This document shows positions 2,461 to 36,093 of a stretch of 64,000 bases of DNA, piece after piece. The first letter of the stretch is position 1. Every line of letters starts with the position of its first letter. The DNA is from an uncultured Pseudomonadales bacterium (GTDB taxonomy: Bacteria; Patescibacteriota; Microgenomatia; UBA1400; PJMF01). A model generated the notes under the pieces. It saw nothing but the letters and a program-made list of their open reading frames with translations, did not search any database and was not told where the DNA came from. The stretch spans positions 16,326 through 80,325 of the forward strand of contig CAZKVV010000005.1 of assembly GCA_964556485.1 (NCBI GenBank), in the 5' to 3' direction. A program made the translations under genes and the position numbers.

Positions 2461-3105
2461 CTATTTGGCAGCTTGTTTAGCTGGCTTACGTGAAATCTTT
2501 TTTTCAGCTGGAGCGTTTTTTACTTCGCTTTTTGCTTGTACTGGAGCTGCAGGATCATGTGACTCTGCACGCTTCTTATGTTTTTCCTGCAATTCCTTTT
2601 CTTTTTGAGCTTCCTCGGCTTCAGAATCAGCAATCGACTTAAGTTTAACGCCTTTGAGTGTGACGATTCGCTCAATCTGCTTGAGTGCTTCGAAAGTAGC
2701 GTACACACTTGAAGCTTTATTTTCTGAACCAAGAATCTTGCTTGAAATGTCTCGCACACCTGCTGCTTCGACAACTGCTCTTACTGGGCCACCTGCGATA
2801 ACTCCTGATCCCTTAGGAGCTGGCTTAAGCAATACTCTACCTGCGCCCTTCTTAACTAAAATAGAAAAAGGGATTGTTGTACCGTTGAGTGGTACGGTAA
2901 TCATACGCTTACGAGCTTTTTTAATGCCTTTTTTGATAGCTGAAACAACGTCGGTTGCTTTACCAAGACCGACACCAACTTGGCCTTTTTTGTCACCAAC
3001 AACCATAAGCACAGAAAATCCTACGTTGTTTCCACCTTTTGTCTTCTTGGAAACACGAGAAATTTGGATAACCTTTTCATCAAATTCTTTTACTTCAGTC
3101 TTCAT
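2461..3105 (-). CDS. rpsE: 30S ribosomal protein S5 with a Lys/Ala/Glu-rich C-terminal extension of about 50 aa
   Basis: S5 core with GGR and VGDKKGQVGVG motifs. It sits directly upstream of rplO with no rpmD (L30) gene in between. Confidence 0.93.
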   Translation of the reverse strand: MKTEVKEFDEKVIQISRVSKKTKGGNNVGFSVLMVVGDKKGQVGVGLGKATDVVSAIKKGIKKARKRMITVPLNGTTIPFSILVKKGAGRVLLKPAPKGSGVIAGGPVRAVVEAAGVRDISSKILGSENKASSVYATFEALKQIERIVTLKGVKLKSIADSEAEEAQKEKELQEKHKKRAESHDPAAPVQAKSEVKNAPAEKKISRKPAKQAAK

Positions 3106-25541: not shown

Positions 25542-26492
25542 CTATTGTACCAGCTGTGCGGTAACAACTCCTCGACGTAAATAAGTACCTTCAGGAGTAC
25601 AGGTCACTAACTTTAACTGCTTAGCATCATAATGTTGGGTAAGAATATAGACATCTTCCGGCTGAACTTCAGTTTTTTCTTGGACAATATATCGAAATTT
25701 CACGCCATCAGCAGTCACAAATATTTCATCTCCAGACTTCAGGGTCATAATAGTGCTAAAAATTGAGTTATATCTTCTAGGATTTTTTTCACTCGGATTA
25801 TAGAACTGTCGCAAGACAGAATGGCCAAATATCACTGGGGCACCTGGTTGTCCAGGCAACGCAGTTCCCTTGTAAGCAACTAGAGATTTATTTAGATCGG
25901 CACCACCCACAGTAACAACAGCATTCTTAATATTTAGTTTTGGAATATCCACCACATACTCTGCTATAGAAGCTGCATCTGAATCCCTCTGAAGGGGTAA
26001 TTCTGGCAATGTTGCAGCTGTAAACCAGTTATTAAGATTTGTGTAGTCAAGTTGTTCATCCACAATGATTGGTTCAATAGGTTCATCACTTAAGCCTGCT
26101 ACCGAGCCAGAAGTATCAATCACCAGTGGTGTTACATCCATCACTTGTTCTCGAGGAACTGGAGCCAGCAAATTTGCAGTTTGCAATACAGGAGCGGTTG
26201 ATACGTAGTAAGTAAGGATTGGAAAGACTGCACTACCTACTAAATAAATTCCAAATCCCAAAAATGAAACTGGAATAATAAATGCACCGACTCTCACAAT
26301 TTTTGGGACTCTTTTTTTGACTTTTTGCGCTCGCTCTTTTACGTATGTTTTTTCAATAGCGTCACTCACAGACATGCGTGCGATTTGCTTTTGAATTTTT
26401 GTCTCAAGTTCTTCAAGAGGCACACCACTAACAAGCGCCTTACGATACAACTCAACTAACTGAGAGTGGAGGGCAGACTGCTTGGTACTCAT
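25542..26492 (-). CDS. sortase-family transpeptidase (membrane-anchored)
   Basis: Internal TM helix, conserved His (IFGHS) and a catalytic LVTCTP (TLxTC) motif. Confidence 0.8.
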   Translation of the reverse strand: MSTKQSALHSQLVELYRKALVSGVPLEELETKIQKQIARMSVSDAIEKTYVKERAQKVKKRVPKIVRVGAFIIPVSFLGFGIYLVGSAVFPILTYYVSTAPVLQTANLLAPVPREQVMDVTPLVIDTSGSVAGLSDEPIEPIIVDEQLDYTNLNNWFTAATLPELPLQRDSDAASIAEYVVDIPKLNIKNAVVTVGGADLNKSLVAYKGTALPGQPGAPVIFGHSVLRQFYNPSEKNPRRYNSIFSTIMTLKSGDEIFVTADGVKFRYIVQEKTEVQPEDVYILTQHYDAKQLKLVTCTPEGTYLRRGVVTAQLVQ

Positions 26493-28702
26493 TATTCAGT
26501 TTCTTTTGTGAGTACTACTTCTACTCGACTTTCATTTTTTGGAACAGATCTTGTAAATGAAGGTGACAAGGTCATTTCAACGGACTTCACACCTTTCAAA
26601 CTCTGCAACTGTGACTTCGCTGTTTGAACAGATTGACCAAGAATCGATTTCTTTGCGTCATCTAAATTTAACTTAGGCACTGCAACGGAACTCAGGTTAG
26701 CTGAAAGTGTGACAACGCTAGCTGAACCGGATGCAGCTTTTGATTCTTCTGGTGCAGATAAAATTTGCGGCTTTTCTGGTGAAAGCTCGTAACCTTCAGG
26801 TATTTCGCTTTTAAGCACAGCTGCAGCAAGCGGCTGTAAATCTCCAATACTGTATGAAAGCAGTGAAACAGTCATTTCTAGTTTAGCTGTGACTTCATTT
26901 GCTTCGGTATCAACCTTGGCATCAAAGTCTGCCTTTTCTTTAGCCACAGTAGCATTTGGCAAAACATAGACACCCTCGGCAGCGTCGTCTTCTAATGCTT
27001 TAATAGCTTCTGCTATCAATTTTTGTTTTAATTCAGCAACAACTTCGATTTGGTCTGCAGCGGCAACAACCCGCACCTCTCTACTTGAACCACCAGTAAA
27101 GTCCTTTATTGAAACTGCTTCATAAGTAGTTGCCGCAAAAGATTCAATGACAAACTTTGTCTCTTTGCTAATATTACTTTCCGTACCAATCTCTTTAGCT
27201 GTAATAGATACTTCGGCTTTACCAAACTCTATTCCTTGCTCCTTAACACTTGCCGAAGCAACTATTACATCAGAATCAAGTGTAAAAACCAACGTTCCTG
27301 CCTTAAATGCTGTACCAGTTTTGAACTCTTTATCGGCAGTGGACTTGTTGTACAACGTAACAGATCCCTTTGCCTTCTCGCCAACAATTTTGATGCCTGT
27401 TGTTAAAATAGTATTTTCACCTGTCACTGTTTTAGTTAGGGTTGTTGCTGCCAACAGCAGCTTTTCCGCATCAGAGCTTGTAGCATTTGAATCTAGCTTA
27501 ATACTCACCTGTTTGGAAACCTGTTTTTTTTCAAGAAGTAATGAGAAACGAGCCGTAGCAAAAAGTGAGGTAGCAAATAACCCTAATGCTGCCACCGTTA
27601 GTATTCCCCCAACAATTCCTGCAAGTATAAATTTCTTGGTGTGTTTTGCATGAAACAGTGACGTTGTTGAAGACTTTTTCTCTGTTTTTGCAGCAGATTT
27701 TTCTGTTGGCTTTTCCTCATGCTTTACATGGGCTGTATGTGTCTCATGAGTGGTACTGTGCTCTGGCTTATGCAGTAATTTTTCAGTTGGAATAGGGATG
27801 CCAAATGAAGTTGGTTGATGCTCTGAAAAACCTAAATCTGCAGCGGCAACTTGAGGTCTAACGCGCTCCACTTCTGGGGCAACATCACTACTGTGAGAAG
27901 ATGCTATCTCTCGATCTGTTGAATCTGCAACCACTAGACCCTTGCTCGCGGCAATTGCTACGCCTGCTTCAACAGCTAGTAATTGCAAATACTCATGTTG
28001 TGGCAAAATTGAGATGGTAGGAGTTTGTAAAAACTCTGGATGTTCTGTCCAGTTTATTGCAAGTAAATGTTGTTGTGCCTCTTTGAGCACTTCGTCATTT
28101 TCATCACTAGAAGCTAACACTAATTGAGGGGGTAAATACCCAGCATTCTCAACTGCAGGATTAGCAAATCGAGCTAAACCCTCTGCTAAATCGCCAACTA
28201 GGTCCCCAGATCTACCAACTGGTACAGTACTAGTTACCGCGCCTCGTTCAACCAAAGACAATACCACATGCTCTACACCAACAATAACGAGAACTCCAGA
28301 ATAACGTGGATCTTTGGCAAGTTGCTTTTCGACCATAGCTTCAGAGGTAACAATAAAACCGAGTGGCTCAAGTGATAGCTCATCAGTGATTTTCTTAAGT
28401 AATGGTTTCTTTTCTTCAATCAGCTCACCTGCTTTTGCCCATGTGTAAGGTACGGCAAACAAAACTGAGCTTACTTGTTCTGAATCTGGACCAAGTTCTT
28501 GCAATACTTCATCAGTTCTACTTACTGCCGAAGCAGCATCTGTATATCTTTTCAGTTTTGAATGATGTTCTAACTCAACAGTTCCCTGCTCAATCTTGAG
28601 TAACAAGGACTGCACTGAACCACTCGTAACGATAAGACCTAAAAAACGATCCATTTTGTGTGTGGAATCTTTCGTTGTTGGAAATAGGTGTGGCAGTTCC
28701 AT
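26492..28702 (-). CDS. hypothetical 736-aa bitopic membrane protein: cytoplasmic N-domain of about 330 aa (possibly actin-like/FtsA-PilM-like, weak), one TM, and a large extracellular Thr/Ser/Ala-rich domain
   Basis: Hydrophobic stretch FILAGIVGGILTVAALGLFATSLFA. No LPXTG at the C-terminus. An alternative ATG at 28654 is possible. Confidence 0.5.
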   Translation of the reverse strand: MELPHLFPTTKDSTHKMDRFLGLIVTSGSVQSLLLKIEQGTVELEHHSKLKRYTDAASAVSRTDEVLQELGPDSEQVSSVLFAVPYTWAKAGELIEEKKPLLKKITDELSLEPLGFIVTSEAMVEKQLAKDPRYSGVLVIVGVEHVVLSLVERGAVTSTVPVGRSGDLVGDLAEGLARFANPAVENAGYLPPQLVLASSDENDEVLKEAQQHLLAINWTEHPEFLQTPTISILPQHEYLQLLAVEAGVAIAASKGLVVADSTDREIASSHSSDVAPEVERVRPQVAAADLGFSEHQPTSFGIPIPTEKLLHKPEHSTTHETHTAHVKHEEKPTEKSAAKTEKKSSTTSLFHAKHTKKFILAGIVGGILTVAALGLFATSLFATARFSLLLEKKQVSKQVSIKLDSNATSSDAEKLLLAATTLTKTVTGENTILTTGIKIVGEKAKGSVTLYNKSTADKEFKTGTAFKAGTLVFTLDSDVIVASASVKEQGIEFGKAEVSITAKEIGTESNISKETKFVIESFAATTYEAVSIKDFTGGSSREVRVVAAADQIEVVAELKQKLIAEAIKALEDDAAEGVYVLPNATVAKEKADFDAKVDTEANEVTAKLEMTVSLLSYSIGDLQPLAAAVLKSEIPEGYELSPEKPQILSAPEESKAASGSASVVTLSANLSSVAVPKLNLDDAKKSILGQSVQTAKSQLQSLKGVKSVEMTLSPSFTRSVPKNESRVEVVLTKETE

Positions 28703-28768: not shown

Positions 28769-30628
28769 TTACTCTAAGTAAACTCTCCGTATGCCGGCAG
28801 CTGCGGATTGTTCTTTGCTTATGGTCACTGCACCAATTTCTCCAGTATGAGTTACATGAGGTCCGCCACAGAATTCTTTAGATATCCAGTCAGTTTGAGC
28901 ATCTTTTCCGATGGTGTACACCGTAACCATATCTGGGTATTTTTCAACAAAAAATGCAACTGCACCTGATGCTAGCGCCTCTTGCTTTGGTAATGTCTGC
29001 ATGGTTACTGGCAAATCTTGCACGATCCACTCATTTATTTGGGCCTCAACTTGTTGTTTTTCTTGGTCAGTCAGAGGCTTGGTATGAGTAAAATCAAATC
29101 TCAACCGTTCTCCCGTAATATTTGAGCCCTTTTGCCGTACATGGGTACCTACAATTTTTCTGAGAGCTGCATGGAGTAGGTGAGTCGCGGTATGGTACTT
29201 TGTCGTTTGCTCAGAATGATCTGCGAGTCCACCTTTAAACATCGCTCCAGAAGCTTGACGAGATAATGAAGCATGAGCCTGTCTAGCAGTATCAAAGTCT
29301 TCTTGAGAAATTTGTTGACCACGCTCCGCGGCAATTTCAGCAGTAATCTCAAAAGGAAATCCATAGGTTTCGTAGACCTTAAATGCAACTGTTCCATCAA
29401 TCACTGCAACTTTTTCAAGTTCTGACAATCCTTTAGCTAATGCCTTTTGAAATTTTCCTTCCTCTGCCATAAAAACAGTCTTAATTGTCTCGAACTCTTT
29501 TTGCACTTCAGGATATGCATCTGCATAGAGTGTTCGAACTGCTTCTGCAACAGAAACAATGAATGGGCTCGATATGCCGATCAATTTTCCAAACCGTATT
29601 GCTCGACGAACCAACCTACGTGCAAAATAGCCTTGTGCTTTATTAGAAGGGTACACGCCGTCTGCAGCCAACAAGGTCGCAGCACGTACATGATCGGCAA
29701 TGACTCTAAAGGATCTATTGTCTTCTTCAGAAAAACCGTACTTTTTGCCTGATACACCTTCAATTACTTGCATTATTGGAGTAAATATGTCGGTAGCAAA
29801 TACATCTTGCTTACCCTGGCTTACAGCATAAATACGTTCAAATCCGCCACCAAAATCAACATTTTTTTGCGCTAACTCTGTAAAACTACCATCTACTTGC
29901 TTCTGGTACTGCATAAAAACCGAATTACCAATCTCTAAGAATCTACCGCAATCACAGTTCACGTGACAAGGTTCTTCACTAAACCGACTGGTCTCGTGTA
30001 AATGCAACTCTGCCCCAAAATCATAAAAAATCTCACTGTCTGGACCACCTGGTTCACCTGCAGGCATGTTATCTGGAACTCCTGCGCGAGACCACCAGTT
30101 TTTCTTCTCACCATAGTAAAAAATGCGCGACAATCCTAAACCATTTTTCTCAGGCTCCCTTTCTGCCGTAGCATCTATCCCCACTGTCTTAAAAATGTCT
30201 TGCCAAATCTGGACAGATTCATCATCAGGACCAATACCTAGTTTGTCATTACCAGCAAAAACAGTCACAAATATCTTAGCAGGTGCAAGTCCAACTTGCT
30301 TTGTGAGGAACTCGAAAAACCAGCTCAGCTGTTCTTTTTTGAAATAATCACCTAGGGACCAATTCCCCAGCATCTCAAAAAAAGTGATATGTCTGTTATC
30401 GCCAACTTCTTCAATATCCTGTGACCGAAAACATTTTTGGCTATCTACAATCCGCGCGCCTTTTGGATGTTTTTCCCCAAGTAAATACGGCACCATAGGT
30501 TGCATACCAGATCCAGTAAACAAGGTGGTTGGATCATTATCAGGCACAAGCGGCGCTGAAGGGATGATGGCGTGACCATTTTGTTCGAAAAATCGAAGAT
30601 ATTTTTGTCTTAATTCTGTAGGATTCAT
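28769..30628 (-). CDS. alaS: alanine--tRNA ligase, compact form of about 619 aa lacking a C-Ala domain
   Basis: Class II AlaRS N-terminus MNPTELRQKYLRFFEQNGH. Editing-domain motifs HxxxH (HTATHLLH) and CGGPHV. The ATG at 30628 is used instead of the upstream extension. Confidence 0.9.
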   Translation of the reverse strand: MNPTELRQKYLRFFEQNGHAIIPSAPLVPDNDPTTLFTGSGMQPMVPYLLGEKHPKGARIVDSQKCFRSQDIEEVGDNRHITFFEMLGNWSLGDYFKKEQLSWFFEFLTKQVGLAPAKIFVTVFAGNDKLGIGPDDESVQIWQDIFKTVGIDATAEREPEKNGLGLSRIFYYGEKKNWWSRAGVPDNMPAGEPGGPDSEIFYDFGAELHLHETSRFSEEPCHVNCDCGRFLEIGNSVFMQYQKQVDGSFTELAQKNVDFGGGFERIYAVSQGKQDVFATDIFTPIMQVIEGVSGKKYGFSEEDNRSFRVIADHVRAATLLAADGVYPSNKAQGYFARRLVRRAIRFGKLIGISSPFIVSVAEAVRTLYADAYPEVQKEFETIKTVFMAEEGKFQKALAKGLSELEKVAVIDGTVAFKVYETYGFPFEITAEIAAERGQQISQEDFDTARQAHASLSRQASGAMFKGGLADHSEQTTKYHTATHLLHAALRKIVGTHVRQKGSNITGERLRFDFTHTKPLTDQEKQQVEAQINEWIVQDLPVTMQTLPKQEALASGAVAFFVEKYPDMVTVYTIGKDAQTDWISKEFCGGPHVTHTGEIGAVTISKEQSAAAGIRRVYLE

Positions 30629-30915
30629 GGTTCCCCACTTTCTTTTTTGGCACAAAAAAACTCGTCTGCGCCGCATAGTATTACTAGTTACTACCGGCAA
30701 GGACGAGTATATCGTGGTACCACCTTGCTTTATTTAGCGAAATATTCACTAAAACTTGTTATTTCACTTTTACGGCGAATTCCCGGATTCTCTTAGGCGT
30801 AGCGTTCGAGAATCAGCTCATGGGTGGCCAAATGTGTTTGTATTACTCGTTTTCAGCTACCCGAGCTCTCTTATTAATACAATGCTGTTTAGTACAGCCA
30901 CATTATCTCCCAATC
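30629..30915 (-). ncRNA. putative T-box riboswitch leader of alaS
   Basis: Minus-strand sequence contains aaGCAAGGUGGUACCACGa, close to the T-box consensus AAUUAGGGUGGUACCGCG. It is immediately followed by a terminator hairpin CUCGUC...GACGAG plus U7 ending 24 nt before the alaS ATG. Upstream there is an AGAGAG motif, and GAAC-GCU-A is a candidate Ala specifier. A promoter-like TTGTTT-17-TGTATAAT lies at about 30925-30957. Confidence 0.55.
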
Positions 30916-30959
30916 GCAGCTTTTATTGACTTGTAAACCTATTATACAAAATAACTCGT

Positions 30960-35328: not shown

Positions 35329-36093
35329 CTACTCGTTCGAACTTTGATTGTGATACCGACAGAGCTCTGGAGGGAGCCGACGAACACCAACGAAATTTGC
35401 TTGCTCTTCAACAATGTGAGCAATGCTTCCCGCAGCCTTAGCTACTGCAAATAAAGCATTTCCAACTGCTGGTGGTAATTTCAGGGTTAGCAGCAGTGCC
35501 GCCATAGCTCCATCAATATTCAGCACTCTCAGAGTGCCCGTCTGCTCCTCAAGTATGAGTTCAACTTGCTTTGCAATATTAAGATACTCAATGTCGATCT
35601 CTTCATTTCGCGCTACTGCAAACATCTGGCGTGCTCGTGGATCACTTTTTGTATATACCGCATGACCAAAACCTGGCACACGCTCCCCAGCTGCTAACTT
35701 TTTTAGTATCGTTTCTCTTGCAGCTTTTTCTACGTCATCTTGGCTTGAAATAGCCACAAACAGTTCCATGGCGGCTGACACCGCACCTCCATGCATCGGA
35801 CCTAAAGTAAGTAGTCCTGCAGCTATTGCAGTAGTCGGCTCAACCCCTGACGAAGCGGCAACTCTTGGGACAAAACCACTGGCAGGACTCAAACCCTGAT
35901 CAAGGGCAGCAGTAAGCACTGCATTAAAAATGCACAACTCAGATTGGCTTGCGCGCCTACCCGACAATGACAAAAAAAAGGCACTACAAAAATTTGCTTC
36001 AGAAATGAGTGTGGAAATTGTTGCACCGCGTATGACAATTTCACCATCCGCAACTCCACTTACATTTGTATCAAAAGTGAGATCTCCAGCCAT
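35329..36093 (-). CDS. short citrate-synthase-family protein (citryl-CoA lyase-like, 254 aa)
   Basis: RVPGFGHAVYTKSDPR matches the citrate-synthase active-site region. It lacks the N-terminal half of canonical citrate synthases. Confidence 0.6.
   Translation of the reverse strand: MAGDLTFDTNVSGVADGEIVIRGATISTLISEANFCSAFFLSLSGRRASQSELCIFNAVLTAALDQGLSPASGFVPRVAASSGVEPTTAIAAGLLTLGPMHGGAVSAAMELFVAISSQDDVEKAARETILKKLAAGERVPGFGHAVYTKSDPRARQMFAVARNEEIDIEYLNIAKQVELILEEQTGTLRVLNIDGAMAALLLTLKLPPAVGNALFAVAKAAGSIAHIVEEQANFVGVRRLPPELCRYHNQSSNE

Follow-up and report, generated by a model that had tools for sequence, protein, structure and literature searches.

A Probable Class I T-box Riboswitch Upstream of alaS in a Patescibacterial Genome

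Introduction

T-boxes are well-known RNA switches that read the charging state of tRNA. The locus described here lies in a 64-kb stretch of DNA (the window) and raises the question of whether the alanyl-tRNA synthetase gene alaS is preceded by such a switch. T-box control of a compact alaS in an organism with an apparently reduced genome had been proposed in an original prediction made from the sequence. The genome is indeed patescibacterial, belonging to the small-genome Candidate Phyla Radiation (CPR), and the proposed reading is supported by a match to the Rfam T-box model (RF00230), by a predicted antiterminator and terminator, and by the position of alaS downstream. The leader 5' of alaS is very probably a genuine and complete class I (transcription-attenuating) T-box riboswitch. 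Its mechanism is already known from textbooks, and the element is a further member of the T-box family. According to the TBDB preprint, this family is dominated by Firmicutes and may have arisen in an ancestor shared by Firmicutes, Actinobacteria, Chloroflexi, and Deinococcus-Thermus. No T-box was described for the lineage of this leader in the literature searched, and its phylogenetic interest is modest.

The features of the locus are listed below. A3 denotes an alignment of seven leaders from closer relatives.

30969-30941, minus strand: probable promoter, read from the sequence, with TTGTTT (30969-30964), a 17-nt spacer, and TATAAT (30946-30941)
30926-30654, minus strand: predicted complete T-box leader, preceding the alaS ATG at 30628
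30920-30816, minus strand: Stem I, from the Rfam alignment, the MFE fold, and covariation in helices 1-4 of A3
30899-30884, minus strand: extra 16-nt Stem I hairpin, GGCUGUACUAAACAGC, an insertion in the Rfam alignment that folds as a hairpin
30871-30846, minus strand: AG bulge, then the distal helix and its loop; the counterpart in the Rfam consensus alignment is AGAGA...GgUUGGUGaaA, and the helix covaries (helix 4)
30828-30826 and 30825, minus strand: putative specifier codon GCC and conserved purine A, from the position in the Rfam alignment and invariance in 12 leaders
30814-30786, minus strand: Stem II, GAUUCUC/GAGAAUC, from the Rfam alignment, with compensatory changes in five of seven pairs (helix 5)
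30785-30762, minus strand: Stem IIA and IIB pseudoknot, CGG (30785-30783) with CCG (30775-30773) and UUC (30779-30777) with GAA (30765-30763)
30753-30733, minus strand: Stem III, UUUAGUG/CGCUAAA, from the Rfam alignment, with compensatory changes in nine of nine pairs (helix 8)
30728-30697, minus strand: antiterminator, with helix A1 (GCAAGG/CCUUGC), bulge UGGUACC (30722-30716), and helix A2 (ACGA/UCGU)
30708-30654, minus strand: intrinsic terminator, ACUCGUC...GACGAGU with inner stem GCCGGUAGUA/UACUAUGCGGC, then U7 (30660-30654)
28769-30628, minus strand: alaS, the regulated gene, encoding 619 aa with PF01411 and PF07973 (catalytic and editing domains)

Match to the Rfam T-box Model

A full-length match to RF00230, covering model positions 1-219 of 219, was found at 30926-30696 on the minus strand. 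It scored 80.8 bits, with an E-value of 6.4e-18 for the 601 nt searched and of 6.8e-16 for the whole 64-kb window, and it was the sole Rfam match in the window at E ≤0.01. The Rfam gathering score for this family is 93 bits. A default scan of the whole window at the gathering threshold therefore returned no match, which is an effect of the threshold and not of absence; the window copy was found with an E-value threshold instead. Compared with the Rfam family, all helices are aligned over positions 1-219, and the difference lies in the score. The 12 bits by which the window copy falls short of the curated threshold count against the T-box reading, and the reduction is probably due to a 16-nt insertion in Stem I together with the deletion of GAA in the specifier loop. 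Three leaders of close relatives (L081, L083, and L209) scored 97.5-99.9 bits, so that the orthologous element satisfies Rfam's own criterion in these relatives. Nine of the 12 leaders scored were below 93 bits, including six of the ten patescibacterial ones and the window copy, and leaders of this kind would be missed by threshold-based annotation pipelines.

The match also extends the element in the 5' direction. The predicted range, 30629-30915, is too short, given that the base of Stem I lies at 30920 and the Rfam match begins at 30926, ~11 nt further upstream. The sequence strings named in the original prediction are all present on the minus strand. What had to be corrected were the start of the element, two distances, and the assignment of the specifier.

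Architecture of the Leader

The strong -10 element noted upstream of the leader is found as TGTATAAT at 30948-30941 (minus strand) and is better read as part of a promoter in which TTGTTT is followed, after the spacer, by TATAAT. A consensus promoter scan missed this pair because the -35 element matches at just three of six positions. In relatives, a -10 box lies at an equal distance upstream of Stem I. Transcription would be expected to start near 30934.

The base of Stem I consists of a GC/GC helix with a GA (K-turn-like) motif (GCUGCGAUUGGG / CCCAUGAGC), and further helices are formed by AAUGUG/CACAUU and by UUGUAUUA/UAAUACAA. The predicted AGAGAG element is present at 30871-30866 (minus strand), where it was aligned as the Stem I AG bulge, and the distal hairpin reads CUCG-GGUAGCUGAAAA-CGAG. 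The AG bulge and the distal loop are expected to form a platform that stacks on the tRNA elbow. Stem I thus has its class I features, with the GA/K-turn motif at the base and the AG bulge and distal loop at the tip. The extra hairpin GGCUGUACUAAACAGC interrupts the 5' strand of Stem I where the specifier-proximal helix meets the distal one, and a three-way junction results. It is absent from all 11 related leaders and is private to the window copy. Such an inserted hairpin is unusual and could disturb tRNA docking, which counts against a working T-box.

Stem I is followed by Stem II, the Stem IIA and IIB pseudoknot, and Stem III. Stem IIA is invariant across relatives. The pseudoknot shows changes on both sides in four of four pairs, with UUC/GAA, ACCC/GGGU, and UCA/UGA among the leaders compared (helix 7).

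The near-consensus T-box sequence of the original prediction, AGGUGGUACCACG (AGGTGGTACCACG in the DNA), was located at 30725-30713 (minus strand). The window has no second match, and at ≤1 mismatch 0.04 would be expected by chance. The antiterminator built on this sequence has a calculated energy of -9.3 kcal/mol with its bulge kept open, and the terminator has one of -22.8 kcal/mol (-24.6 kcal/mol in a longer segment). In the DNA, the arms of the terminator hairpin are ACTCGTC (30708-30702) and GACGAGT (30666-30660), and the T7 run after them occupies 30660-30654. The hairpin CUCGUC/GACGAG with U7 is thus present as predicted, and its distance to the ATG is 25 nt rather than 24. Moreover, the two structures overlap: nucleotides 30708-30697 belong to both, and the antiterminator CAAGG-UGGUACC-ACGA...UCGU-CCUUG takes up the 5' arm of the terminator, which makes the folds mutually exclusive. 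Neither of the two results named as refuting in the original prediction, the lack of a significant covariance-model match and the lack of an antiterminator that sequesters the 5' half of the terminator, was obtained. In all relatives a terminator and U tract were found, the 5' arm again overlapping the 3' strand of the antiterminator. As modeled, this is the canonical design, in which termination would occur by default and uncharged tRNA would be needed to stabilize the antiterminator. The bulge contains UGGU in 12 of 12 leaders, and its U is complementary to A73 of tRNAAla. A73 has been reported for tRNAAla isoacceptors, and characterized alaS T-boxes carry the matching bulge U (PMC4695836).

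The alaS Gene and Its Neighborhood

The regulated gene is compact, as had been predicted, and its 619-aa product is without the C-Ala domain. Matches to AlaRS structures in the PDB cover residues 2-456 (catalytic) and 472-617 (editing) only; none of the matches to solved AlaRS structures corresponded to C-Ala, and the protein ends with the editing-domain core. The 120 AlaRS homologs listed are 605-650 aa long. Matches of similar length in Chloroflexi- and Spirochaete-labeled loci (L072, L074, L078, and L080) suggest the same short AlaRS there. An upstream in-frame TTG start at 30700, which would give a 643-aa ORF, was rejected because it lies inside the antiterminator/terminator.

Downstream of alaS, the same strand encodes a 736-aa ORF, a sortase, ruvX, a macro-domain protein, and yceG (mltG). 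The 736-aa ORF (26492-28702, minus strand) lies directly downstream of alaS and gave no Pfam match; a counterpart of 753-776 aa occupies the same position in most of the relatives fetched. No terminator-like site was found downstream of alaS before ~23430. The leader may therefore control a transcript that extends past alaS. No other aminoacyl-tRNA synthetase gene was found among the window ORFs scanned. Elsewhere in the window, a 254-aa ORF (35329-36093, minus strand) has a citrate synthase match that is confined to the C-terminal part (positions 148-350 of the 357-position profile) and may be a truncated or divergent gene.

Conservation and Covariation Among Relatives

The AlaRS is itself patescibacterial. 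Among the matches listed, its nearest named homologs belong to 'Candidatus Pacebacteria' (72% identity), and other listed matches are labeled Patescibacteria, Woesebacteria, or Cerribacteria. Many MAGs with CPR-type AlaRS and gene order are titled 'uncultured Gammaproteobacteria' or 'Pseudomonadales' (L001, L002, L004, L006, L010-L012, and others), and these labels look unreliable.

Contigs were fetched for eight AlaRS homologs of 67-73% identity. Seven of these close homologs (L081, L083, L085, L207, L208, L209, and L211) have a T-box at the same place before alaS, and in several of the seven the flanking genes are alike. The orthologous leaders scored 44.5-99.9 bits with the Rfam model; the three already named pass 93, and the others lie at 44-81 bits. 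The remaining close relative, L210, has no T-box; the region upstream of its alaS (~1170-1400) is G+C-rich and carries a long inverted repeat (...CCGTTGGTACGGAGTTGAACCGGATCCGATA ... TATCGGATCCGGTCCCGTACCAACGG...). In L211 (1207-1421) the T-box has a shortened Stem I with no recognizable AG bulge/distal-loop platform, and this is the copy that scored 44.5 bits. It retains GCC-A, Stem II, the pseudoknot region, the antiterminator, and the terminator, and its short Stem I recalls that of actinobacterial T-boxes. In L085 (~1300-1500) and L208 (~1370-1500), alaS begins ~190-230 nt beyond the T-box terminator. The intervening spacer contains repeated ~45-nt units (TTTCGGACCCGACCTTTTCAAAGAAAAGTCG.AGGTACGAAATATG) and may be a small inserted repeat element.

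Covariation was examined in A3, given that Stem I was misaligned by MAFFT when the more distant leaders L034, L056, and L078 were added. RNAalifold applied to A3 independently yielded Stem I, Stem II, Stem IIA, Stem III, and the antiterminator. Pairs were then counted on the RNAalifold structure with the IIA/B pseudoknot added, the controls being the same helices with their 3' partners slid by 1-3 columns. Paired cells made up 90.9% in A3 compared with 40-47% with slid partners, and changes on both sides were found in 35 of 57 pairs compared with 8-17 in the slid controls. None of 500 shuffles reached the pairing values observed. The covariation supports Stem I, Stem II, the IIA/B pseudoknot, and Stem III as conserved structures. 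All structural elements, their conservation, their covariation, and the mutually exclusive helices are directly supported.

The Specifier Codon and Alternative Readings

The specifier codon is placed by the Rfam alignment at UUUG-GCC-A-CCCA, where the specifier loop ends on its 3' side. All 12 alaS leaders have GCC at this position, with variable flanks and with covariation in the adjoining closing helix (UGGG/CCCA, CAAG/CUUG, CAGG/CCUG, and CAAA/UUUG). Directly 3' of GCC, A was found in eight leaders, G in three, and C in one, giving a purine in 11 of 12. GCC is an alanine codon, in agreement with alaS as the regulated gene, and Watson-Crick pairing with tRNAAla(GGC) is predicted from it. Certain observations at this site speak against a T-box. 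The specifier loop has AGAU on its 5' side and UUUG on its 3' side, the Rfam alignment deletes the GAA positions, and the lack of a clear GAA/AGUA S-turn is a point against the reading; in L034 the loop retains AGUA/CGA. GCC is also a minor alanine codon in the window genes (117 of 842), and an ARAGORN search of the 64-kb window found no tRNA gene, both of which count on the same side. The window is without tRNA genes despite encoding SecY, EF-Tu, EF-G, and other core gene products. When the search for tRNAAla genes was widened to the window and 23 loci, the sole tRNA was a tRNAVal in L002, and the T-box-bearing loci contained no tRNA gene.

The original prediction had taken GCU, within GAAC-GCU-A, as the specifier. 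This string (GAACGCUA, or GAACGCTA at 30807-30800 on the minus strand) is present and resembles the pattern GAA-N-codon-A. Moreover, GCU is the specifier of the characterized alaS T-boxes of Bacillus subtilis and Clostridium acetobutylicum (PMC4695836), and Ala T-boxes favor specifiers with a 3' U (PMC7778990). Against these points, Stem I is already closed 5' of the string, which sits within the apical loop of Stem II, and the sequence of that loop is unconserved. The string is missing from every relative, including the leaders that pass the Rfam threshold, and it is GCC that is invariant in the canonical position, 3'-terminal in the specifier loop, with a purine next to it in nearly all leaders. 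The GCU string also lies ~80 nt upstream of the T-box sequence and not the predicted 150 nt or so. GCU was rejected on account of its Stem II position and its lack of conservation, and it is almost certainly not the specifier. Two further readings accept GCC and question what the leader does. One is that the element is a decayed T-box, a constitutive attenuator or plain 5' UTR structure in which tRNA sensing has been lost. The score under the gathering threshold, the degenerate S-turn, the additional Stem I hairpin, and the many related CPR alaS loci at which T-boxes were lost or never present would all fit such a relic. Yet GCC with its purine, the AG bulge, the distal loop, UGGUACC, and the A1 and A2 helices are all intact, and the compensatory changes across relatives indicate continuing selection on structure. 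In addition, a constitutive terminator of -22.8 kcal/mol before an essential single-copy aminoacyl-tRNA synthetase gene would be harmful without a route to antitermination. Decay is thus very unlikely. The other is a translational (class II-like) or dual-acting T-box, which would control ribosome access instead of, or besides, termination. Translational T-boxes exist in Actinobacteria, and many CPR genes look nearly leaderless, which makes control at the level of translation conceivable. The alternative helix in this leader, however, is a classic G+C-rich hairpin with U7 that ends short of the ATG, and the purine-rich region preceding the ATG is outside the hairpin. Translational ileS T-boxes have a short Stem I, and the one in this leader is of full length and has its platform; U tracts are also present in all relatives. 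These features make translational control extremely unlikely.

Proposed Mechanism

The transcription-attenuating reading preferred here would operate as follows. Transcription would begin near 30934, and Stem I would present GCC in the specifier loop to the anticodon of tRNAAla, most likely the GGC isoacceptor. The AG-bulge/distal-loop platform would touch the tRNA elbow, with Stem II and the IIA/B pseudoknot supporting the complex. If the tRNA is uncharged, its 3' ACCA would pair with the UGGU of the bulge and stabilize the otherwise weak antiterminator, and RNA polymerase would continue into alaS and perhaps as far as yceG. With a charged tRNA, the far more stable terminator would form and transcription would end at U7. 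We infer from the architecture of the leader that tRNA binds, which isoacceptor does so, and how transcription responds.

Distribution of the Element

Stem III together with the antiterminator was made into a covariance model (R1), which was run over 90 sources. Among the 80 species-representative loci listed, which are a sample and not a census and have AlaRS 46-64% identical to that of the window, R1 gave four matches: the Saccharibacteria-labeled L034 and L056 and the Chloroflexi L074 and L078. Among the AlaRS relatives sampled, the element is found in the clade of the window itself, in two loci labeled Saccharibacteria, and in two from Chloroflexi. When AlaRS was placed in a rough NJ tree, the T-box-bearing genes fell into three separate clades, each nested among relatives without a T-box. 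Either an ancestral T-box that was lost repeatedly or several acquisitions would account for this patchy pattern.

CPR alaS genes without a T-box (L069, L058, L064, L055, and L002; ~2970-3003) start ~10-20 nt past a TAnAAT -10 box, and their mRNAs are nearly leaderless, compared with a leader of about 300 nt in the window. A pattern scan of metagenome DNA with GCCACNNNNGAGCTGATN{15,45}ATCCGG gave 120 listed matches, all by chance and mostly G+C-rich, with no credible T-box among them.

Comparison With Known T-boxes and Significance

The closest experimentally characterized counterparts are the alaS T-box leaders of B. subtilis and C. acetobutylicum (PMC4695836), which regulate the same gene and have the UGGU bulge matching A73. 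Also shared are the GA motif, the specifier loop, the AG bulge and distal loop, Stem II, the IIA/B pseudoknot, Stem III, and the antiterminator/terminator. In contrast to these leaders, the window copy has GCC in place of GCU (PMC4695836), an extra hairpin in Stem I, and no recognizable S-turn; its host is a patescibacterium and not a Firmicute, and its AlaRS is without C-Ala. The choice of GCC also departs from the general preference of Ala T-boxes for specifiers ending in U (PMC7778990). The alaS T-boxes of Chloroflexi (L074, Chloroflexia, and L078, Anaerolineaceae) resemble the window copy in GCC, the UGGU bulge, a terminator with U tract, and a short AlaRS. They differ in being G+C-rich and in their AlaRS, which is ~47% identical and forms a separate clade. 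The actinobacterial ileS T-boxes, which are translational (class II), have in common with the window copy the sensing of tRNA through a specifier and a UGGN bulge. In those T-boxes Stem I is ultrashort and the Shine-Dalgarno sequence is sequestered; the window copy, in contrast, combines a complete Stem I with an intrinsic terminator.

A limited literature search found no paper linking T-boxes with Patescibacteria, the Candidate Phyla Radiation, Saccharibacteria, or Parcubacteria. It is tentatively suggested, at somewhat less than even confidence, that T-box sensing is an unreported native system of Patescibacteria, conserved at alaS in a Microgenomates/'Pacebacteria'-like clade, sporadic in Saccharibacteria, and with a Chloroflexi-like GCC specifier. 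If true, this would be consistent with descent from a common Terrabacterial ancestor and with repeated later losses that left alaS nearly leaderless, and many copies would lie below the gathering score and hence be missed by standard annotation.

The value of the finding is mainly phylogenetic and practical. At least some ultrasmall Patescibacteria would still devote about 270 nt of RNA to monitoring tRNAAla charging and tuning AlaRS. The patchy distribution, and the GCC specifier found in Chloroflexi as well, are relevant to how T-boxes arose and spread within Terrabacteria. As genetic methods for Patescibacteria emerge, a native tRNA-responsive leader could also be used in them as a regulatory part.
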